From the NCBI GenBank assembly GCA_964016885.1, contig OZ024758.1:6510001-6574000 (forward strand): a stretch of DNA of 64,000 nt. Direction: 5' to 3'. The DNA is from Eledone cirrhosa. Taxonomy: Eukaryota. Under the pieces are notes generated by a model. It did no database searches and had not been told where the DNA came from. It saw nothing but the letters and a program-made list of their open reading frames with translations. The translations under genes were made by a program, and so were the position numbers. Below, one piece after another: positions 13,219 to 54,760 of this stretch; the first letter of the stretch is position 1, and each line of letters opens with the position of its first letter.

Positions 13219-13221
<3 letters not shown>

Positions 13222-13404
13222 TGATATTCTACAGGACTAGAACTGTTTCATTCTTGAGAAATCATCAGGAATCCTGATGATTTCTCAAGAATAAAACAGT
13301 TCTAGTCCTGTAGAATCTCATCTATATTAAAACTTTTATACTGTGCTATGTATTGAGTACCTTACTTACTGCGGTTACCTCCGATTCAAGCCGGAATAAC
13401 TTAG

Positions 13405-18139: not shown

Positions 18140-18305
18140 TATTTCCGATGTATATCGGGAGGTGACGACAATTGATAAAGGTACTCAGTACGTTAGTAGA
18201 GTATAAGCATATTTATTTTATTATAGAAATGACCTCTACAAGACTAGAACTGTTTGATTTCTTACGAATGAAACAGTTCTAGTCCCGTAGATATCATTTC
18301 TATAA
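18140..18305. mobile_element. Family A cassette, inverted arrangement
   Basis: Hairpin ttatagaaatga...ctagaactgttt / gaaacagttctag...tcatttctataa, with a reverse-oriented tail containing gtactca. Confidence 0.65.
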
Positions 18306-20031: not shown

Positions 20032-20520
20032 GTAAAAGTAAAACCATAAGCTAGCAACCAGGCTTAACATAAAAGAAATATGGACACTGTAATATATCCA
20101 TATCTTCACTTAAAGAAATTCTCCTATCTTCAGATTGACGTTGGTTTATTTCAAGTCTCTGAGGAAAAGATTTCAAGTGAAAAATCAATATATCTTGGTT
20201 TATCTTTTATTGATATATTTAGGGATTGTCAAGTTGCCTGTATTGCCAATAAAAAGGGACACATGAACCATATGATTTTCACGTTATCTTTATTATTAGT
20301 TATTCGTTAGTTCGTTAAACTTCTTTCGTCACATTCTGTGACCTCCTCAGTGATTATCTGTTCTCTTTTGTGCCTTTTCTTCTTTCTAGTTTTCGTTTTT
20401 CGTTTGTTTGTTGTTGTTTTTTGTGATTGTTTTGTTTTAATGGTAGTTCCTAGCAAATAAAATTAATCCTATATCCTGATATCTTGCCAAAATGAAACGA
20501 TTTTTAACTATCCCTATAAT

Positions 20521-20770
20521 TCTTCTTCTTCTTCTTCTTCTTCTTCTTCTTCTTCTTCTTCTTCTTCTTCTTCTTGGCCCACTTATTCGTGGGGCCAGAG
20601 TCCTTAAACACTCCTCCCAACGGCTCCTGTCAGAAGCAACCGTCTCCAACTGATTCGGTTTGATCCCCAAACAGGACGAGCCAAGTTCATGGATGTTATC
20701 CAACCATCTCACTCAGAGTCTACCCCTGGGTCTCCTGCCGTTTCACCCCAAACATGACCAGCCAAGCTTA
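20521..20770 (-). mobile_element. RTE-like LINE 3' end with (AAG)n tail
   Basis: RWLDNIHEL...ASDRSRWEE followed by (GAA)n on the minus strand. Confidence 0.7.
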
Positions 20771-20776
20771 TGGACG

Positions 20777-22350
20777 TTACACTGTACAATATTGGGGTTC
20801 TTTATCCTCTCTCTATCCTTCCACTGTACACTATTGGGGTTCTTTATCCTCTCTCTATCCTTACACTGTACAATATTGGGGTTCTTTATCCTCTCTCTAT
20901 CCTTCCACTGTACACTATTGGGGTTCTTTATCCTCTCTCTATCCTTCCACTGTACACTATTGGGGTTCTTTATCCTCTCTCTATCCTTCCACTGTACACT
21001 ATTGGGGTTCTTTATCCTCTCTCTATCCTTCCACTGTACACTATTGGGGTTCTTTATCCTCTCTCTATCCTTACACTGTACAATATTGGGGTTCTTTATC
21101 CCCTCTCTATCCTTCCACTGTACACTATTGGGGTTCTTTATCCTCTCTCTATCCTTACACTGTACAATATTGGGGTTCTTTATCCTCTCTCTATCCTTCC
21201 ACTGTACACTATTGGGGTTCTTTATCCTCTCTCTATCCTTCCACTGTACAATATTGGGGTTCTTTATCCTCTCTCTATCCTTACACTGTACAATATTGGG
21301 GTTCTTTATCCTCTCTCTATCCTTACACTGTACAATATTGGGGTTCTTTATCCTCTCTCTATCCTTACACTGTACAATATTGGGGTTCTTTATCCTCTCT
21401 CTATCCTTACACTGTACAATATTGGGGTTCTTTATCCTCTCTCTATCCTTCCACTGTACACTATTGGGGTTCTTTATCCTCTCTCTATCCTTCCACTGTA
21501 CACTATTGGGGTTCTTTATCCTCTCTCTATCCTTACACTGTACAATATTGGGGTTCTTTATCCTCTCTCTATCCTTACACTGTACAATATTGGGGTTCTT
21601 TATCCTCTCTCTATCCTTACACTGTACAATATTGGGGTTCTTTATCCTCTCTCTATCCTTACACTGTACAATATTGGGGTTCTTTATCCCCTCTCTATCC
21701 TTCCACTGTACACTATTGGGGTTCTTTATCCTCTCTCTATCCTTACACTGTACAATATTGGGGTTCTTTATCCTCTCTCTATCCTTCCACTGTACACTAT
21801 TGGGGTTCTTTATCCTCTCTCTATCCTTCCACTGTACAATATTGGGGTTCTTTATCCTCTCTCTATCCTTCCACTGTACACTATTGGGGTTCTTTATCCT
21901 CTCTCTATCCTTCCACTGTACACTATTGGGGTTCTTTATCCTCTCTCTATCCTTACACTGTACAATATTGGGGTTCTTTATCCCCTCTCTATCCTTCCAC
22001 TGTACACTATTGGGGTTCTTTATCCTCTCTCTATCCTTACACTGTACAATATTGGGGTTCTTTATCCTCTCTCTATCCTTACACTGTACAATATTGGGGT
22101 TCTTTATCCTCTCTCTATCCTTACACTGTACAATATTGGGGTTCTTTATCCTCTCTCTATCCTTCCACTGTACACTATTGGGGTTCTTTATCCTCTCTCT
22201 ATCCTTACACTGTACAATATTGGGGTTCTTTATCCCCTCTCTATCCTTCCACTGTACACTATTGGGGTTCTTTATCCTCTCTCTATCCTTACACTGTACA
22301 ATATTGGGGTTCTTTATCCCCTCTCTATCCTTCCACTGTACAATATTGGG
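20777..22350. repeat. 42-bp tandem satellite, about 37.5 copies
   Basis: Unit cctt(a/c)cactgtaca(a/c)tattggggttctttatcc(t/c)ctctctat. It explains the three 538-595 aa ORFs. Confidence 0.97.
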
Positions 22351-23851
22351 ATCATGTATACTATGGATAGATCATTGGCTGAATCGGTTCATTATATTTG
22401 ATGAATGTACAGACACATCGATATTTAAAACTTCTGGATATGTTTAAAACTTCTTTCAATATCTCGCATTGTATGTATATATTTATATATATGTATATAT
22501 TTATATATCTATCTATCTATCTAAGGCGGGTAAAATTCCCGAGATCTATGGACGAGTTCTCTCCAGCGGTCTCTGTCCCTCATTATCGCTGCCATATCCT
22601 GCATCTCCAACAGACCAGTGTCTGTCCTTAGGGCATCAACATATGTTAACCTTGGTCTTCCTCTTCTAGTGTGTCCATGTATATATAGAGAGAGAGAGAT
22701 TGATAGATTCGTTAAAGAAGTATAACCATATAAGAAAGTAACTATTTTGATACATACTATATCTGGTCTGTGTCTATGTACTTACATACATACATGGTGG
22801 CTGCCAACTCGTTTTCGAGTACGGCCACTACTTTATATCCATGTAGGAAAACCAATACATACATACCTACATACATACATACATACACACATACATACAT
22901 ACAACATACCTAGCTATATTCATACACACATACATACATACATACAACATACATACCTACATACAACATACATACCTACATACAACATACATACCTACCT
23001 AGCTACATACATACACATATACATACAACATACACACATACATACATACCTAGCTACATTCATACACACGTACATTCATACATACATACATACATACACA
23101 CATACATACACACATATACACATACATACAAACATACATATACATACATAATACATACATGCCTATATATATGTATATATACATACCTGCACAGACACAG
23201 CTACATTCATACATACACACCTACATACATAAATACATACACACCTACCTACATACATACATACATCATATACATGCATATATATAGATACCTACACAGA
23301 CAAACTTACATACATACATATATACATACACACCTTCATACAAACATACATACATACATGCACACACACCTACTTACATACATAAACACCTTCATACATA
23401 CATACACACCTACTTACATACATACATACACACCTTTATACATACACACCTACTTACATACATACATACATACATAGATACATACATACTTACATACACA
23501 CCTACTTACATACACACCTACCTACATACATACATACACACCTACCTACATACATACACAACTACCTACATACATACACACCTACCTACATACATACACA
23601 CCTACTTACATACATACATACACACCTACTTACATATATACATACATACACACATACATACATACATACATACATACATACATACATACATACATACATA
23701 CATACATACATACATACATACATACATACATACATACATACATACAATCGTGTGCATGGGTGTTGATATACATATCAACGAGAAAATTGGCGGTAATTGC
23801 ATCGCACAATATATATGTGTATATATATACATATATATTTATATATACATA

Positions 23852-24759: not shown

Positions 24760-27134
24760 TATATGTGTGTGTGTGTAAATATACATAATATAATATAATG
24801 TCGTAATTTAATATTGAAAAGCATTTTGTATGGAACTCATTTTAAATCTGAAGTTATATTGTCTGTTCGTCAACATTTCTTGTTTATTTTGTCTCTGATC
24901 TTTTTATTGATTTACATTCTTGTTTTTGCTGCATTTTGTTTTGCGTTTTTATGCATATCACCTTTGGCGAGCTGGCCTTTTGTATTAATGTCATTATTTG
25001 ATTGATTGTGGAAGTTAGTGAAAAGAACTACGCTTTTGTTAATGTGAATTAATTTGGATGATTCTAGATTAGTGTTTGCTATTTTTTTTTCTTTCAATTT
25101 CTCATATATCACAGATTCCTCGAAAGACTTAAGATAAATTAATACTACAAGTTTCAACTCATACATAAGTATTAACTGGTTCTAGCACAGTTGCATGTGT
25201 AACTTTTCACACGCCATTTTCCCGATCTTGTTAAGATTTTATAGCACAATCCTGAAGTATTAATTTGTATACATTTTCTCAGTGATATAACGGAAAAGGT
25301 AGCTTAGTGTAGTTGTATTTTTATCATTTCGACATTATAACCGACAATACTTTTCACAAAAACATGCTTAAGAGGGTTTTATTCTATATCTAAGCTTTCT
25401 TTTTACCAAATGGGAATAAATATATTATTTTATATCATGATTAACATTCTTAGAGAATTCCTTTTGCTGGGTGTTTATCGCTTTCCTTATGAAATAGAGT
25501 TATTCTTACTTTATAATTCCTTTTTCTTCTTCTGAACTCCAATGTTCGTATCTATCTCTAAAGTCCACACACATAGAACATGGTAACAACAAACTCTGTC
25601 GCCAACCTGATTGCTAAATACATCTGCCAATAAATTAGTTGCTGTCGGGATGTTTTCACCCTACATTTTTCCTTGATTACAGAAATGACTGCTACTAATT
25701 ATATTTAAAACCACGTAGTCAATGTATTCACCTTCTTTCTTGGTGTTATACCTTCAATAATTGCTTTCTCAAATCAGCTCTAAATTGCTGCTCAACATTT
25801 CACAAGCAAATATTTCCTCTGCCTGTTTATTCCTGCAACACTGCCTCTTCAAATATTTTCACCAATAAAATTCCACGTCCACATTTCGATAGCTTAGGCA
25901 TTGTGTGCAGGCTCTACGTCACCATTTCCTGTGCAGATAAAATAAAGTACCAGTCAAGTATTGGGGTATATTTAATCGACTATTCTCTATTCTCCCTCCC
26001 CCTACTCACCAAATATTTTCAATTATGCCTAAAATTGGATCAGAAACCGTAATCAGGAATTCAGACCAATTCCTGTGTTTGAATGGATTTAAAGTGAGAA
26101 AGGAACTGAAATGATAAAAGACCATAACCAAATATCAAGTGGTATTTTGTCTAATGCTCTAAAGATTCTGTCAATCCACTAACCTTTTTAAATGAATTAT
26201 AATGATTCAAATAAATATTAATGCCGACCTCAGTTGAAGATGAACTTTTCAAGAGACGTGGTGAAGCAAAATCTTATCTAGCTGTCTAAAGCTTCTGGCA
26301 CTCCATCCCCTTAGAGAAAACTGAATAAACAATAAAACTAAAAGAGCAATTGGTAAAAACATAATAGGTTAAAGTGTTACATATATTAAAGATCAACGAC
26401 TCCTGAGATTAACTGGAAATATAGGAGCAGAAAATCGAATACGTATCAGCCTGCGTGTATTGTTTGCGAGGTTTCGATGCAATAAGACTTTCATGTGAAC
26501 GAGTACAGTTGTGTGTGCGTAGGGTTTTTATATTGTAGTGTTTCTGTGTGTATGGTTGCATGTGTGTTTTTTGTGTGTATGTGTGAGTGTGTGTATGTGT
26601 GTGTGTATGTGTTTGTCTGTGTGTGTGTGTGTCGGTATGTGTGTGTATGTGTATGTATGTGTGTGTGTTTGTGTGAGTACATGTGTGTGTCTGTGTATGT
26701 ATGTGTGTGTGTGTGTGTGTCTGTGTCATTATATGTGTGTGTATATGAATGTGTGTGTCTGTGTCTGTGTGTGTACCGGTATGTGTGTGCGTCTATGTAT
26801 GTATGTGTGTGTGTGTGTCAGTGTGAGTATATGTGTGTGTATATGTGTATATGTGTATGCCTGTGTCTGTGTGTGAGAGAGTGTGTATCGGTATTTGTTT
26901 GTAATATCTGGGTCTGTATGTGTGTGTGTGTGTATATGTGTGTGTCTCTCTGTGTGTCTGTACGTCTCTGTGTGTGTATGTATGTGTGTGTCTGTATGTG
27001 TGTCTGTATGTCCGTGTGTATATGTGTATATGTGTATGTGTGTATGAGCAAAATATTACATCAAAGGTCATTGAAGTTATATAAACTGTGAAATTAGTTT
27101 ATAGCAAGTAAAGGTTGGCAAGCATCCACAATCT

Positions 27135-27614
27135 ATCTAATCTAAGGCGAGTAAAATTCCCGAGATCCATGGACGAGTTCTCTCCAGCGGTCTCTGTCCC
27201 TCATTATCGCTGCCATGTCCGCATCTCCAACAGACCAGTGTCTGTCCTTAGGGCATCAACATACGTTAACCTTGGTCTTCATCTTCTAGTGTGTCCATGT
27301 AGGGGCTCCCAAAGGAGTACTAAGTGCAATGTCAACTCTGGATGTCGGTGAGCATGCCCAGCTAACTTCAGTCCCCTCTGTATCACTTTTGAGCTGACTT
27401 TTGGGATGCTCCCATACAGCTCTGAGTTTTTCATCCTCAGTGTATACTGATTAATGTTCAGAGCCATCCTCAGCATTCTCGTGTAGCACCCATCCACCAT
27501 CTGAGGGAGTTTCTTGGTCAGTGTCCAAGTCTCAGACCCATACAGCAGCACAGACTCCACTACAGCAATGAAGAGGCGGATTTTCAGGTCTCTACGAAGG
27601 TCCGACATCCACAA
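27135..27614 (-). mobile_element. RTE-like LINE 3' end; its last ~160 bp recur at 22520-22680
   Basis: LKIRLFIAVVESVLLYGSETWTLTKK...MLRMALNI, with an (AGAT)n-type tail. Confidence 0.85.
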
Positions 27615-27969
27615 TTAGCGAATTAAAAGGATCTCTATTCTTCTTTGGTTTCTGTGCATTGCATAACCTGAAGTCATTTCAGTACTAATAATAACAAAAA
27701 CTGGTTAAATGTAAAATGCTATCTAAAGGGAATATTGAACGAGTTATTTGAGTGGTAAGATTCCCGGCTATAGAAATTGAATAGAGCTATCGGAAATATA
27801 TGCTATTTTCAAAAATACACAGTGACTGATCGGCCTGATTTGCATATTAGTACAGTGAGCTGTACTGATGAAGGGTGATACCCAGAAACATTAGTGTCTG
27901 CAGTTCTGTTCACATGCCAACACAAGAGCAAGAATGAAGGGTTCATTCTACTGACATGGCTATAAAATT

Positions 27970-28760
27970 GCTTAGGGGTATCTGACGGACATTTGAGACC
28001 CAAATGTCCATCAGAGACCCAAATGTCCGTCAGATACCCCTAAGCGGCCACCTGGCAACGTGTGGTCAGGGAATATTTATAATATTCCCATTCTACAAAT
28101 TACACAGCCCAAGTGAAATCAAGAGAAAAATCAAAGAAAAGAATTTTATTGATAAATTCAAACCCAAGCTAAATGAACAATAATAACGCCTAGGGGTATT
28201 ACTTCTACTACCACTATGACCACGACCACTAACAACAACAACAACAACAATAATAATAATAATAAAAGTGATGTTGATGGTGATGATTAATAGAAAATGC
28301 TATTTTCATCATTTCAAAAAGCAAAACAATTGATACGTTGGGTATGACTATTGGTCGTTAGCATGCTCAACCAGCCGTGACGTTTAAACCAATCAGCTGT
28401 AGTAATTCAGTGAAACTACACACTGATTGGTCGAAATACAGTTTACAGGGCTTTGCATTCTGGAGCCACTTTTCTCTGTATAAAATGTATAAAAGGTAGT
28501 AAATTTACCCATCTCATTACAGTTGAAAATTGCAAACTCGACTGTCACCACATATGAACCTGAAGATTGCGAAAGCATGAAAGTACTTGTTCAATTAACA
28601 CTTAGAATTTAATATTCTATCATACTATTTCATTATAATACCATATTATATATATTTTAAAGGATTGTAAATAAAACGAGTAAATCAGACAAAGTTGGAA
28701 TTCCTCTTATTAATATAATCTTCTATACACAATCATACACACCCGTGTATATTTACCTAT
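27970..28760 (+). mobile_element. 5'-truncated Penelope-like retroelement: inverted 5' segment, GIY-YIG endonuclease C-terminus, 3' UTR with hammerhead, ending in (TA)n
   Basis: 28010-28183 translates IRDPNVRQIPLSGHLATCGQGIFIIFPFYKLHSPSEIKRKIKEKNFIDKFKPKLNEQ*, with the E..I..F.P.LN ending of PLE GIY-YIG domains. 27970-27995 is the exact reverse complement of 28020-28045. HHR at 28555-28593. Confidence 0.8.
28555..28593 (+). ncRNA. Minimal type I hammerhead ribozyme
   Basis: UGAAC-CUGAAGA-U-UGC(GAAA)GCA-U-GAAA-GUAC-UU-GUUCA. Perfect 5-bp stem I, GNRA-capped stem II, palindromic stem III (AGUACU), CUU cleavage triplet. Confidence 0.85.
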
Positions 28761-28765
28761 CTATA

Positions 28766-28829
<64 letters not shown>

Positions 28830-29822
28830 CATGATCACTATTTGTAGATCTTTATGTTCATTCTTGCAATCAATATCATTTTATTGTTTTCCTTCTATTA
28901 AAGTTGAATGGAAGGTCATTTTTATAGTTGACACTAAATCTTTGTTGTCACTCAAACTTGTCACATTCAAATTAATTTGTCCGCAAATACCAAAATATAT
29001 GTTCATATCGTGTGATTATGATAGTATAAATCAATCTCATAATTTAATTTCAATAATATATTGTGGTTGAATGTATATGTTCAAGAAATATATTATTTCT
29101 ATGGTTTCACAAAAAATGTTTGTCCAACGGAACGGTTGTTGTTAACTACATACAATAGGATAAATTAGATATTTACAATAGTATAACTTAAGCAAAAACA
29201 TGCGTAATATAAGCTGATATTCAAATGTAAACACACAAGGAAGTCACAAAAACAAACATACAGTTTCACGTACACAAACATCGACGTTTTCAGACGCCTC
29301 AATATCACTAATTCTAGTTTTCGTGTCTGATGCTGGGATTACAGTCTCATTATGTATTTAATCATATATAATTAAATAGAAATGATATTATTTTAGGCCA
29401 TCTTGTTTTAATGAAATTCTGTCCACAACACAGGGTTGTCTAGACATCTTGTGTTTAATTGAAAATCTCGCTGAGACAAGGGATGAAGTTAATGAGTAAA
29501 TAAATTCGTTGTTTGATCATACTAATAATATAACTTGCAATTACTAAACACAAAGATTTTATTATTATTTAGTAAAATAAAAGGGTAGTGTGTTGGCAGT
29601 ATCAGTAGCGTGGTGAAAAACATGTCCCTTTATGTTCTAAGTTCAAATCCCGCTGAAGTTGACTTTGCCTTTCATTCTTACGAGGTCGATAAAATGAAAT
29701 ACCAGTAATGCATTGGTGTTGATTTAACCGACTTTCCCCTCCTCCAATATTGTTGGCCTTGTGCCTAAATCAGAAGCCATCATTATTTATTAAATTCTAA
29801 TCCCGCTGAAGTTAATCTGTTT

Positions 29823-29899
<77 letters not shown>

Positions 29900-30639
29900 T
29901 GTACCTTCCTGTCGTACTTGTTAACAGATAGGTGGGTTGAACCATTCGATATTTAAGAGTTGTTGCTATCGTAACAGGGTACAAAGTAATTGCGAATATA
30001 AATGATTTTAGTTATTATCGTTGTGTGATCTCAGGTCAACTCTGATCCGGAATACCTACAGAGCCATTCACATATCATCCATAGCTGTGAACTTGACATA
30101 TCTCCGTTTAACTATGAACCATATTACATATTTTGACATACAATCATTTATTACATGTTGTGAAGTCTGGCGAGTTAGGCATGTTGTAAACTTTCCACTT
30201 TTCCCTCAATGTATAACTACCGTTTTGGATGTTGTTGTAGTTGTTACAGTTGATGTTTAACCGAGATCAACTCTAATTCAGTAGAATTATGATCAAAGAT
30301 ATCTCACCTAAGACCACGAGTAATGCGTATGTAGCACTACATTATCCAATGTGACAACTGTCTTTTCAACAAAAAGGTGATTTAATGACAAATTAGCTGC
30401 TGTTTTTAAAAGATCGAAAGACATAGTCGCTCCCGCTTAGTCTCGTTGATTCTCTATTTTTTTTATTGTTTTTACTCAGGTTAGCTCCAATTGAAAATAT
30501 CTATGGCTAAAAACATAACTACGCTGTCTTTTCTTCAAGCATTGTGTGTATCTAGTGTCACATCATCCAACATAGCCCTTCTTTTTAAGATTTTATGAAG
30601 AACTTCACATGCCCTTCTCTATTAGCTACTCTATATCTA

Positions 30640-32758: not shown

Positions 32759-32859
32759 GTGCTGAAAATGTTGCTGGTAGTTGTATTACTGTTCGTTATT
32801 TGCTGGATGCCTCTGCAAATTTACAACGTCTCATCTAAAGTGTGGCCAACAATTAACGA
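32759..32859 (+). CDS. Class A neuropeptide GPCR (leucokinin/lymnokinin receptor-like), exon encoding TM6-ECL3
   Basis: Acceptor ttttcAG before 32759 and donor GTaagt at 32860. Encodes VLKMLLVVVLLFVICWMPLQIYNVSSKVWPTIN plus 2 nt (GA). Contains the TM6 CWxP motif; phase 2 matches the next exon. Confidence 0.93.
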
Positions 32860-33071
32860 GTAAGTACTGTTTTAGATGTAACAATTCAACATAACAAGGA
32901 AGGTTTAAATCAATAAACCAAATTCAATTCCCAATAGAAACATATTTACTTCATTCTTCATGAAGGATTGACATTGGAACAATTCAATACCCTTTCTCAT
33001 GAAATGGTTTGGGTTTTTTTTCTAGAAAGACGAATACAATTATAAAAGAAATTACCATATCATTGCTTTTT

Positions 33072-41091: not shown

Positions 41092-41182
41092 CTATAAATA
41101 TATCAACATAATTTGGTTTTGCTTCAACTGGCTGGCAATGAGTAACTCGTGTTATAACCCCTTTATATATGGTCTTTTAAAC
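41092..41182 (+). CDS. Same GPCR, exon encoding TM7
   Basis: Polypyrimidine tract and ttcAG acceptor, GTaagt donor at 41183. GA+C gives Asp, then YKYINIIWFCFNWLAMSNSCYNPFIYGLLN with the NPxxY motif. WLAMSNSCYNPFIY is typical of leucokinin-receptor-family TM7. Confidence 0.95.
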
Positions 41183-42029
41183 GTAAGTATTCCAAGTATT
41201 TATTTTATATAATATTTAATTCAGATTTATTAAGTAACAAGTGTATGAAGTTATCTACAAATGAGCAAATTTTAAATAGAAATGAAATATGTTGTACTTC
41301 AATTAATTGAAGCTTGGGGACTCCACTGATTTCGAAGTCAATCATTTTACAAACTACAAAATGTCGCTCGAGAAGCTTTACTTAATTCCGATTTCAGCAG
41401 TTTAGAATAGGGAAATATTACTGCGTAATCTATACGTTAGTCTATACAAGGTAAGTTCCTGTCTATAACAGGTAAGTTCCTCAGGAGAGCCTAGTATCTA
41501 TGTTCTATTGCTTGATAAGTGTAGAATGGAGTTATTAATGACTTGTCACAAACATCAACATACATGCATTGAGATACAATCTAAGAACAACATTCTGATA
41601 ACATGCCCTGTCAGTTTTCCTTCGGGTAGAATAAAATAATTAGTCGCATCAGTGTGTGTTAAATTGATTGTTAAAATTTTAAACACACTCAAGGATGAGA
41701 AATATGTCTTAGTTTATTGAAATAGATGGATTAATTCGAGTGAATTTATTTTTCTCAGTATCAGGTGACGTACACAGAAATATTTACTGTAAAATCGTAC
41801 TAATATTAGATTCAATCGTCAGACCAAATCATATAAAATTAGTATCCAAAAATATTTTAACTAAAATTATGTGCTATATTATTAACGGAATAAACTTTTA
41901 ATCAATTTAAAAGTAGGTATTTTAGAAATAGTGTTTTTTTAATATTGCATTTCTACTTTCCGATTATGTATGGAATGAATGAACCGCATGAAAATAAACT
42001 TCACTGCATTAAACTTATAACTAACGTGA

Positions 42030-48743: not shown

Positions 48744-48746
<3 letters not shown>

Positions 48747-48934
48747 TGAGATTCTACAGGACTAGAACTGTTTCATTCTTTAGAAATCATCAGGAATCAG
48801 CGATTCCTGATGATTTCTAAAGAATGAAACAGTTCTAGTCCTGTAGAATCTCATCTATATTAAAACTTTTATACTCTGCAATGTATTGAGTACCTTACTT
48901 ACTGTGGTTACCTCCGATTCAACCCGGAATAACG
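48744..48934 (+). mobile_element. PLE-end fold-back cassette with hammerheads on both strands (family A)
   Basis: Perfect inverted repeat 48744-48798 / 48802-48856. HHR at 48802-48850 reads GAUUC-CUGAUGA-U-UUC/GAA-U-GAAACAG...CU-GUA-GAAUC. A unique tail then runs into (TA)n. Confidence 0.85.
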
Positions 48935-49024
48935 TATATATATATATATATATATATATGTGTCCCAAGGCTCTGATACCATCAACACTATAAACACAGA
49001 GCTGGCATATCTAAGAACTGACTA

Positions 49025-49080
49025 ACTGCCTGATGAGGTCATAGCCATTCAATGGCTATCATCGAAATATATATAGCAGT
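49025..49080 (+). ncRNA. Type I hammerhead ribozyme
   Basis: Stem I ACUGC/GCAGU, CUGAUGA at 49030, stem II GGU-AUAGCCAU/AUGGCUAU-AUC, GAAA at 49064, stem III (UA)n, AUA triplet, followed by AATAAA. Confidence 0.88.
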
Positions 49081-49121
49081 AAATAAAGGATTATGAGTTC
49101 ATGCAATTGACTTATGTTTCG

Positions 49122-49163
<42 letters not shown>

Positions 49164-49263
49164 GGCAGAATTGCTGCTGGAATGGACCCGTTATTTTTAT
49201 TTAAAGACATTTTTTCCAATTCCATCCCGTCCGTCCCCGCAATCTATCTTATTTCTCTTTCTT

Positions 49264-49299
49264 TCTTCTGATGAAGGAGTAGCGTCCGAAACGTTAAGA
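49264..49299 (+). ncRNA. Minimal type I hammerhead (PLE-type GAAACGUU)
   Basis: UCUU-CUGAUGA-A-GGA...UCC-GAAAC-GUU-AAGA, within a roughly 170-bp cassette (49220-49388) ending in (TA)n. Confidence 0.8.
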
Positions 49300-49383
49300 C
49301 CCTCTTCCTGCTATTTCAAGCGTTAACCTAATATATTCCTTCCATATACTGTATCGATTGTGTTGTTGTTTCTGTTTACCTTT

Positions 49384-49460
<77 letters not shown>

Positions 49461-51519: not shown

Positions 51520-51960
51520 CGATATTAAACAAATGGAAACTATATTTATAAAACCATATTTATTTCGTTATATATATTTCTGGGATATCACATTAAAAAT
51601 ATGGTATGCCTTCCTCAGACAAAATACAATATACAAGCTGTTTTATAAATAATTTTGACATACCTTAGAATAATGCAACTTCCATTTAAAATCAACTTTT
51701 TAAATGGAAGTTGCATTATTCTAAGGTATGTCAAAATTATTTATAAAACAGCTTGTATATTGTATTTTGTCTGAGGAAGGCATACCATATTTTTAATATG
51801 ATATCCCAGAAATATATATAACGAAATAAATATGGTTTTATAAATATAGTTTCCATTTGTTTAATATCGTAAACCTACTCCAAAAACTGTTGAGTGCTTT
51901 TATATCAGTTATAAAATATTTACTCGTTGTAACCCAACAATTTTAAATAAATCTTTTGCA
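51519..51960 (+). mobile_element. Near-perfect 2 x ~173-bp fold-back PLE cassette with hammerheads at 51763-51828 (+) and 51561-51626 (-)
   Basis: Arms 51519-51691 and 51698-51870. HHR reads UAUUUUGU-CUGAGGA...GAAA-UAUAU-AUA-ACGAAAUA. Tail with TTGAGTGC; (TA)n flanks. Confidence 0.85.
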
Positions 51961-54633: not shown

Positions 54634-54760
54634 TATCGGGGGTAAATATAGTTTAAAAGGGGTACTCAATGCGTTGATAGAGTATAAACATCTCATATAT
54701 AGAAATGATTTCTACGGGGCTAGAAATGTTTCATTCGGGAGAAATCATCAAGAAGCCATT

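Follow-up and report, generated by a model that had tools for sequence, protein, structure and literature searches.

Near 28.0 kb of the window (the whole 64,000-nt stretch of DNA analysed here) lie what are very probably the C-terminal 57 codons of the GIY-YIG endonuclease of a Neptune-type Penelope-like retrotransposon (PLE), part of a likely dead, 5′-truncated copy that keeps its own pLTR hammerhead motif. By itself the locus is an ordinary broken insertion, textbook biology; the accessible text of PMC8557442 describes, among PLE traits, 5′ truncation, inverted copies at the 5′ end, hammerheads in the pLTR and insertion at (TA)n, and there, as in PMC4209133, 5′-truncated copies with a pLTR hammerhead are the common state. 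The features of the region are as follows.

27857–27906, forward strand: second type I hammerhead, unrelated in sequence to the motif at 28555 (z -2.95, alignment, architecture)
27970–27995, reverse strand: 26-bp inverted copy of 28020–28045 (exact match, shuffles)
27996–28009, forward strand: 14-nt direct duplication of 28015–28028, separating the inverted copy from the truncation point (exact, period-19 tandem)
28010–28183, forward strand: final 57 codons and stop of an ORF, probably from a Neptune-type PLE, encoding the C-terminal part of its GIY-YIG endonuclease (translation, homology searches, alignment)
28205–28265, no strand assigned: ACT/ACC/AAC/AAT microsatellite, presumed 3′ UTR (AAC at 28231–28250, AAT at 28249–28265)
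28389–28494, forward strand: putative pLTR promoter, picked out by eye (CCAAT at 28389–28393, ATTGG at 28426–28430, TATAAAA at 28479–28485 and 28488–28494)
28555–28593, forward strand: type I hammerhead variant (descriptor, shuffles, architecture comparison)
28647–28654, no strand assigned: short (TA)4, candidate true 3′ boundary, 87 nt past the hammerhead core (spacing in locus L001, 83 nt)
28758–28829, no strand assigned: long (TA)n microsatellite, which may instead mark the 3′ boundary or be host target (repeat scan)

Positions 28010–28180 on the forward strand encode 57 residues with the C-terminal end KEKNFIDKFKPKLNEQ, followed by a TAA stop at 28181–28183; translation bears out the 57-aa stop-terminated frame of the original prediction. 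The stop-to-stop frame opens at 27986 and runs to 65 aa, but homology begins only at 28010, which is exactly the commonest start of tblastn matches (16/31). We place the break there because the HxQQ that precedes this point in relatives is replaced in the window by duplicated sequence. The peptide had been read as a C-terminal GIY-YIG remnant of a PLE, and the searches agree. Queried directly, it matched nine longer proteins and two of similar length; a wider protein search returned 181 cluster representatives at E ≤ 1e-3, the best 67% identical (E 1.5e-16), and a profile match had a probability of 99.5% (E 2.6e-22). Among the matches listed, 128 of 150 end within 15 aa of the protein's C-terminus. 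The check suggested with the original prediction, a comparison of the peptide with PLE ORFs by tblastn or profile, thus finds GIY-YIG/PLE proteins, and the long relatives carry an RT: in the 18 of at least 350 aa, the xxDD motif of RT occurs in 16, a CX2-5CxxC linker in 15 and ADKGG in 7. Pfam recognised GIY-YIG in 15 of 17 alignment members and RVT_1 in 9, and assigned 0 families to the 57-aa peptide alone. A PDB search with the relatives' profile gave 0 matches, and the plasmid collection searched with P0013 gave none.

The remnant retains H14 (the last His of CCHH), E43 and N55, all invariant in the alignment of relatives; nothing is left of the RT, of GIY and YIG, or of the conserved Arg and both Cys. 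Because the RT and the GIY-YIG core are missing, it drives nothing: the 57-codon copy encodes neither RT nor nuclease core and cannot move itself or other elements. Further PLE coding DNA was sought throughout the window by tblastn with 33 queries, with P0015, a spurious repeat protein among the 18 long hits, kept out; 31 matched at 28.0 kb and 0 elsewhere. A profile built from six relatives likewise recovered the 28.0-kb piece alone, Pfam found no RT in 83 filtered window frames of at least 70 aa, and blastn of 27600–28770 against the window returned self and low-complexity matches, with no second copy of the Neptune-type cassette.

As to clade, the CX2-5CxxC linker is present in 44 of the 54 relatives with enough sequence upstream of GIY (161 proteins examined), and the relatives also show a CxxC within GIY-YIG and a DKG motif. 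According to the accessible text of PMC8557442, this linker marks Neptune and Nematis and is missing in Penelope/Poseidon. Since the relatives have it, the remnant would belong with Neptune or Nematis and not Penelope/Poseidon; linker and CCHH together point to a Neptune-type (or Nematis) EN+ PLE. The earlier label "Penelope" therefore holds in the broad sense of a PLE remnant and fails in the strict sense of Penelope/Poseidon.

At the 5′ junction, 27970–27995 is the exact reverse complement of 28020–28045 (26/26) with no outward extension, and exact inverted repeats reached no more than 11 bp in 40 dinucleotide shuffles of 27600–28760. The exact inverted copy claimed for the frame's 5′ edge is therefore real, but it covers codons 4–12 and not the very edge. 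Between the arms we found an exact 14-nt duplication that had gone unmentioned, in which 27996–28009 repeats 28015–28028 as a period-19 tandem. It sits at a near-match, CATCAGA/CGTCAGA, whose two halves lie 19 nt apart, which suggests that the repeat may have originated by slippage. The turn into the inverted copy has one base of overlap; cDNA fold-back and displacement of a second primer yield the same product and are indistinguishable here. The resulting 76-nt hairpin is very stable (z -10.6). There is neither a TA run nor a clear target-site duplication at this junction. Positions 27962–27981 do match 28180–28199, the bases right after the stop, at 16 of 20 in direct orientation, possibly through ORF–UTR complementarity or by chance; as a target-site duplication we rejected this match, which is too diverged and overlaps the inverted arm.

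The inverted segment had also been offered as a PLE hallmark. The textbook PLE inverted copy, an optional feature in the account of PMC8557442, extends to the element's 3′ end; here an inverted 5′ piece is present, but it is a 26-bp fold-back of the ORF, and a search across the window for any further inverted match found none. Because it fails to reach the 3′ end, it is at most an aborted form of the hallmark. The junction, a slip combined with a fold-back, nevertheless is one clear case on which models for the origin of inverted 5′ ends in PLEs could draw.

Downstream, a hammerhead core with complete CUGAAGA...GAAA...UH begins 371 nt past the stop. When the 587 nt after the stop were shuffled 5000 times, a hammerhead motif arose in 0; a strict descriptor finds 6 motifs in the window and 0 in 200 block-wise shuffles. 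Stem I is 5 bp, helix II is 3 bp with a U-U closure and a GAAA loop, and helix III is palindromic (AGUACU), with a CUU cleavage triplet and a predicted cut after 28588. C3-A9, G12-A14, A15.1-U16.1, H17 and the three helices required of a type I hammerhead are all present, while the 10.1-11.1 pair, usually G-C, is U-U. Fold energy is no better than in shuffles (z -0.17). Rfam at the gathering threshold gave 0 matches over the whole window; at E ≤ 10 it gave 20 in 27500–29000, mostly generic miRNA hairpins, which we rejected, and no hammerhead. The description of a "clean" hammerhead about 370 bp on is thus right in position, full core and excess over chance, and too generous in view of the U-U helix II, the CUU triplet, the unexceptional fold energy and the Rfam result. 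U10.1-U11.1 is reported as a recurring natural variant that keeps some activity (PMC3088659), and GUC as the best cleavage triplet (PMC2238771). Metazoan PLE hammerheads with a tiny palindromic helix III are described as cleaving weakly, as dimers (PMC4209133). By analogy, the motif here would need a second copy pairing through its palindromic helix III and would cut weakly. For the element PAc, cutting by the hammerhead is described as protein-assisted and as dispensable for insertion in vitro (PMC11167929).

The microsatellite between stop and hammerhead is likewise an addition to the original prediction. A Sigma-70 promoter scan was discarded as inapplicable to an animal genome. The (TA)n said to follow the hammerhead is there, as the long run at 28758–28829, preceded by (TA)4 at 28647–28654, and the element's 3′ end perhaps lies at 28646 instead of at the long run.

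Whether tail and hammerhead form one cassette, as originally proposed, was examined through comparable loci. A scan of prokaryote-labelled assemblies reduced 55 candidate stretches to three loci, L001, L002 and L003, all on contigs of bacteria-labelled assemblies with PLE RT-EN and hammerheads, and with TA runs in L001 and L003; by content they look like stray eukaryotic DNA (contamination). L001 encodes an RT-EN protein with the same CX2-5CxxC linker and CxxC, and with 35% identity across the tail. Its stop is followed after 190 nt by the core of a hammerhead with CUGAAGA, a helix II closed by U-U and a helix III that is a 4-nt palindrome; the distance from that core to the next TA run is 83 nt, against 87 nt to the (TA)4 in the window. 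L002 has a hammerhead of another build about 120 nt past the stop of a more distant endonuclease, and L003 one of another build about 770 nt after the EN stop, with microsatellites in between. The order of stop then hammerhead thus occurs in 3/3 loci and the hammerhead type of the window in 1/3. With the same variant at a similar position in a relative, the hammerhead is probably the tail's own, as claimed.

Continuity from tail to hammerhead draws on this one relative and on adjacency, L002 and L003 having other hammerhead types, and a chance neighbour is possible, as hammerhead cassettes cluster at microsatellites (three families within 48745–49390). In that event there would have been two insertions, one leaving the EN tail, which would stop at the AAC/AAT microsatellite, and another, into that microsatellite, leaving the 3′ end of a different PLE as the hammerhead cassette (about 28270–28650). 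The microsatellite does part tail from hammerhead, unrelated hammerhead cassettes do abut here (at 27857, and in the 48745–49390 pile-up), and the 16/20 match might represent a target duplication, now decayed, flanking only the coding piece. Yet the microsatellite alone does not break the link, because L003 has microsatellites in the equivalent interval; the 16/20 match is far more diverged than the perfect arms and owes half its length to the inverted copy; a 5′-truncated PLE copy is expected to retain its 3′ end; and L001 joins this hammerhead type to this endonuclease type. We consider two insertions unlikely and retain a single truncated copy.

Such a copy could have arisen as follows. A full-length element elsewhere in the genome would have been transcribed through its 3′ pseudo-LTR. 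Its protein would then nick a TA-rich site, and reverse transcription would start about 85 (or about 200) nt past the hammerhead, by analogy with L001 and with what is described for PAc (PMC11167929). Synthesis would halt after about 640–750 nt at 28010, where homology is lost. The cDNA end may then have slipped back 19 nt on the CATCAGA/CGTCAGA microhomology and gone on to copy 26 nt of itself, or a second primer may have been displaced, before joining the flank; the products of both steps are in the DNA, and the routes are those we propose. The insertion would have come to lie immediately past the 3′ terminus of a different element with a hammerhead, which does adjoin it, whichever of the two came first.

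That neighbour is the hammerhead at 27857–27906, absent from the original prediction, which lies in the 5′ flank, separated from the inverted copy by 63 nt, and is likely the 3′ end of another PLE family. Its stem I is 8 bp, its helix II is closed by A-A and its cleavage site is GUC; an octamer-like motif, ATTTGCAT, precedes it. A relaxed census counts 10 hammerhead motifs in the window, with further cores at 51763/51626, 54913 and 20350. Near-identical hammerheads head-to-head form a long palindrome at 51561–51828, and those at 20350 (reverse strand), 54913 and 55386 (both forward) are related minimal hammerheads whose long helix II is closed by G-C; loop II of two of them contains ATG. At 48745–49390, three hammerhead families are stacked (C as a head-to-head pair, 49030 and 49268), each (TA)n-bounded. 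Family C comprises short hammerhead cassettes at 13220–13403, 48745–48936, 2092–2219, 18180–18303 and 54661–54755, in which the inverted copy ends 49 nt past the core and the direct copy about 128 nt past it. Unlike the inverted piece at 28.0 kb, the inverted copy of family C reaches the 3′ end, at 13220 and 48745.

The remnant had been said to identify the driver of these non-coding cassettes, and here the original prediction is not supported. Of the 11 other hammerhead neighbourhoods, compared after masking of the cores, 0 align to that of 28555 beyond shuffles (p 0.10–0.96), while two family C copies do align to each other (p 0.005); scores for 48807/49030 and 49030/49268 were ignored, as the regions overlap. 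Nor did blastn find a match, so that the 28.0-kb cassette has no 3′/pLTR sequence in common with the others. The motifs fall into several architectures, and the 49268 type has the build of the L002 hammerhead, unlike that of 28555. The window's remaining hammerhead repeats are probably shorter 3′ ends left by several further PLE families, and the mover of each would be a full-length element of its own family.

That this Neptune-type family nevertheless mobilises the non-coding cassettes in trans, or more narrowly that family C belongs to the same sub-lineage in truncated or non-autonomous form, we regard as improbable. It is favoured by the U-U closure that 4 of the 10 census motifs have in common (28555 and three from family C, each having a helix II of 12 nt and 3 bp), by covariation of the middle pair of that helix between G-C and U-A, and by the proposal that non-LTR retrozymes come from PLE pLTRs (bioRxiv 10.64898/2026.07.22.740005). 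Against it, beside the failure of the neighbourhoods to align, stem I and helix III differ from those of family C, the compensatory change is reached by 50 of 500 shuffles (5 sequences) and is not significant, U10.1-U11.1 recurs naturally (PMC3088659), and the remaining 6 of 10 motifs have other architectures. The cassettes, moreover, are not tandem arrays and have PLE-type inverted and tailed ends, as plain truncations would give. The likeness of helix II in family C to the motif at 28555 is thus a weak lead, not a link. Further-reaching, and decidedly improbable, is a scenario in which a Neptune sub-lineage marked by the U-U-closed short-helix-II hammerhead spawned and mobilises family C, while copies such as the one at 28.0 kb, in sense orientation within an intron of a neuropeptide GPCR gene and beside a second hammerhead, cut the host pre-mRNA and tune receptor expression.

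The neighbour at 27857 also admits a chimera, in which the RT switched template by fold-back from the Neptune RNA onto that of the element bearing this hammerhead, making 27615–28650 one event. The two parts lie on the same strand and abut directly at a complex junction with no TA run between them; however, the pLTR-like parts are dissimilar (their score of 25 is reached by 45 of 500 shuffles), and serial insertion at a common target is simpler. We think a chimera quite unlikely. That the frame is a small functional gene or exapted exon (in-frame ATG at 28004, 59 aa), or the hairpin a microRNA precursor, is highly improbable: the 57 codons without a stop, the retained His, Glu and Asn, the hairpin stability and the sub-threshold miRNA matches speak for it, but the ATG stems from the junction duplication, the catalytic core is missing, the matches are generic and far under gathering scores (best 32.6 against 80 bits), and an intact short frame is expected in a young copy. 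The dead, truncated Neptune-type copy thus remains our reading.

The window around it is AT-rich animal DNA and looks like part of a cephalopod genome; (TA)n and (TG)n runs abound, and LINE fragments occur alongside a SINE family of tRNA-like type. The SINE is abundant, at 29626–29790 and some 20 other places, 75–89% identical to the 29.6-kb copy. A LINE 3′ fragment, presumably RTE-like from its appearance, occupies 27145–27614 on the reverse strand, and its end matches 22524–22679 at 96%. A tandem array of a 30-bp unit at 20743–22371 is open in several frames. Downstream on the forward strand, an AG/GT-bounded segment at 32760–32860 carries the CWxP motif of TM6 (Pfam 7tm_1, E 5.1e-6), with the neuromedin-K receptor as its closest solved match, and a second at about 41092–41183 carries the NPxxY motif of TM7; these are exons of a rhodopsin-type neuropeptide GPCR. 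A homologue search with the GPCR exon found nothing. The PLE remnant likely lies in an upstream intron of this neuropeptide GPCR gene, on the sense strand.

As the only hammerhead cassette in the window with coding sequence, the remnant provides a handle with which to build and classify one family, and 3′ ends that lack an ORF might, as our comparison suggests, be assigned to PLE lineages by their hammerhead architecture. The locus would matter more if family C were non-autonomous and moved by this lineage, or if the GPCR pre-mRNA were cut by the two hammerheads in sense orientation. A literature search on Octopus with Penelope and hammerhead, or with Neptune, found no description of this family, which is weak evidence, as the supplements of PMC8557442 and PMC4209133 may list it or its hammerhead type.

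PLEs have already been proposed as likely movers of animal hammerhead repeats (PMC7229834; bioRxiv 10.64898/2026.07.22.740005). Like the non-LTR retrozymes treated in the accessible parts of the same two sources, the locus combines a type I hammerhead with a dispersed animal repeat and has ties to PLE pLTRs. Retrozymes, however, are non-coding tandem repeats, whereas this is a single copy with a coding remnant and the remaining cassettes occur as monomers or in head-to-head pairs; a retrozyme-like hammerhead tandem was sought in 26400–30000 and none was found. With the PLE minimal hammerheads as described in PMC4209133, the motif has in common type I topology, a 5-bp stem I and a tiny palindromic helix III fit for dimers, but its helix II is 3 bp and not long, the G10.1-C11.1 pair is absent and the triplet is CUU.

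Of the PLE groups, going by the available text of PMC8557442, the Hydra PLEs have a C-terminal EN and hammerheads, as here, but are without CCHH and have DKT; CCHH, with CxxC inside GIY-YIG, and DKG in the relatives rule them out. Naiad, whose EN is nearly indistinguishable from that of Neptune and which targets (TA)n, has its EN at the N-terminus and is without canonical hammerheads; it is ruled out by a tail that ends in a stop directly after the EN, by the C-terminal position of 128 of the 150 matches listed, and by DKG in place of DKA. Penelope/Poseidon, including PAc (PMC11167929), resemble the locus and its relatives in RT-EN order, a pLTR hammerhead, an end downstream of the hammerhead and an AT-rich target, but are described in PMC8557442 as without the CX2-5CxxC linker that 44 of 54 relatives carry, and we rejected them on that ground. 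From the Neptune clade of the same source, the locus differs in that the last 57 codons alone remain, the closest protein being 67% identical and its own family absent among the matches. Its relatives agree with that clade in the GIY-YIG EN C-terminal to the RT, the CX2-5CxxC linker, CCHH and the DKG motif, and the locus itself in a hammerhead within the 3′ repeat, a TA-rich boundary and 5′ truncation.
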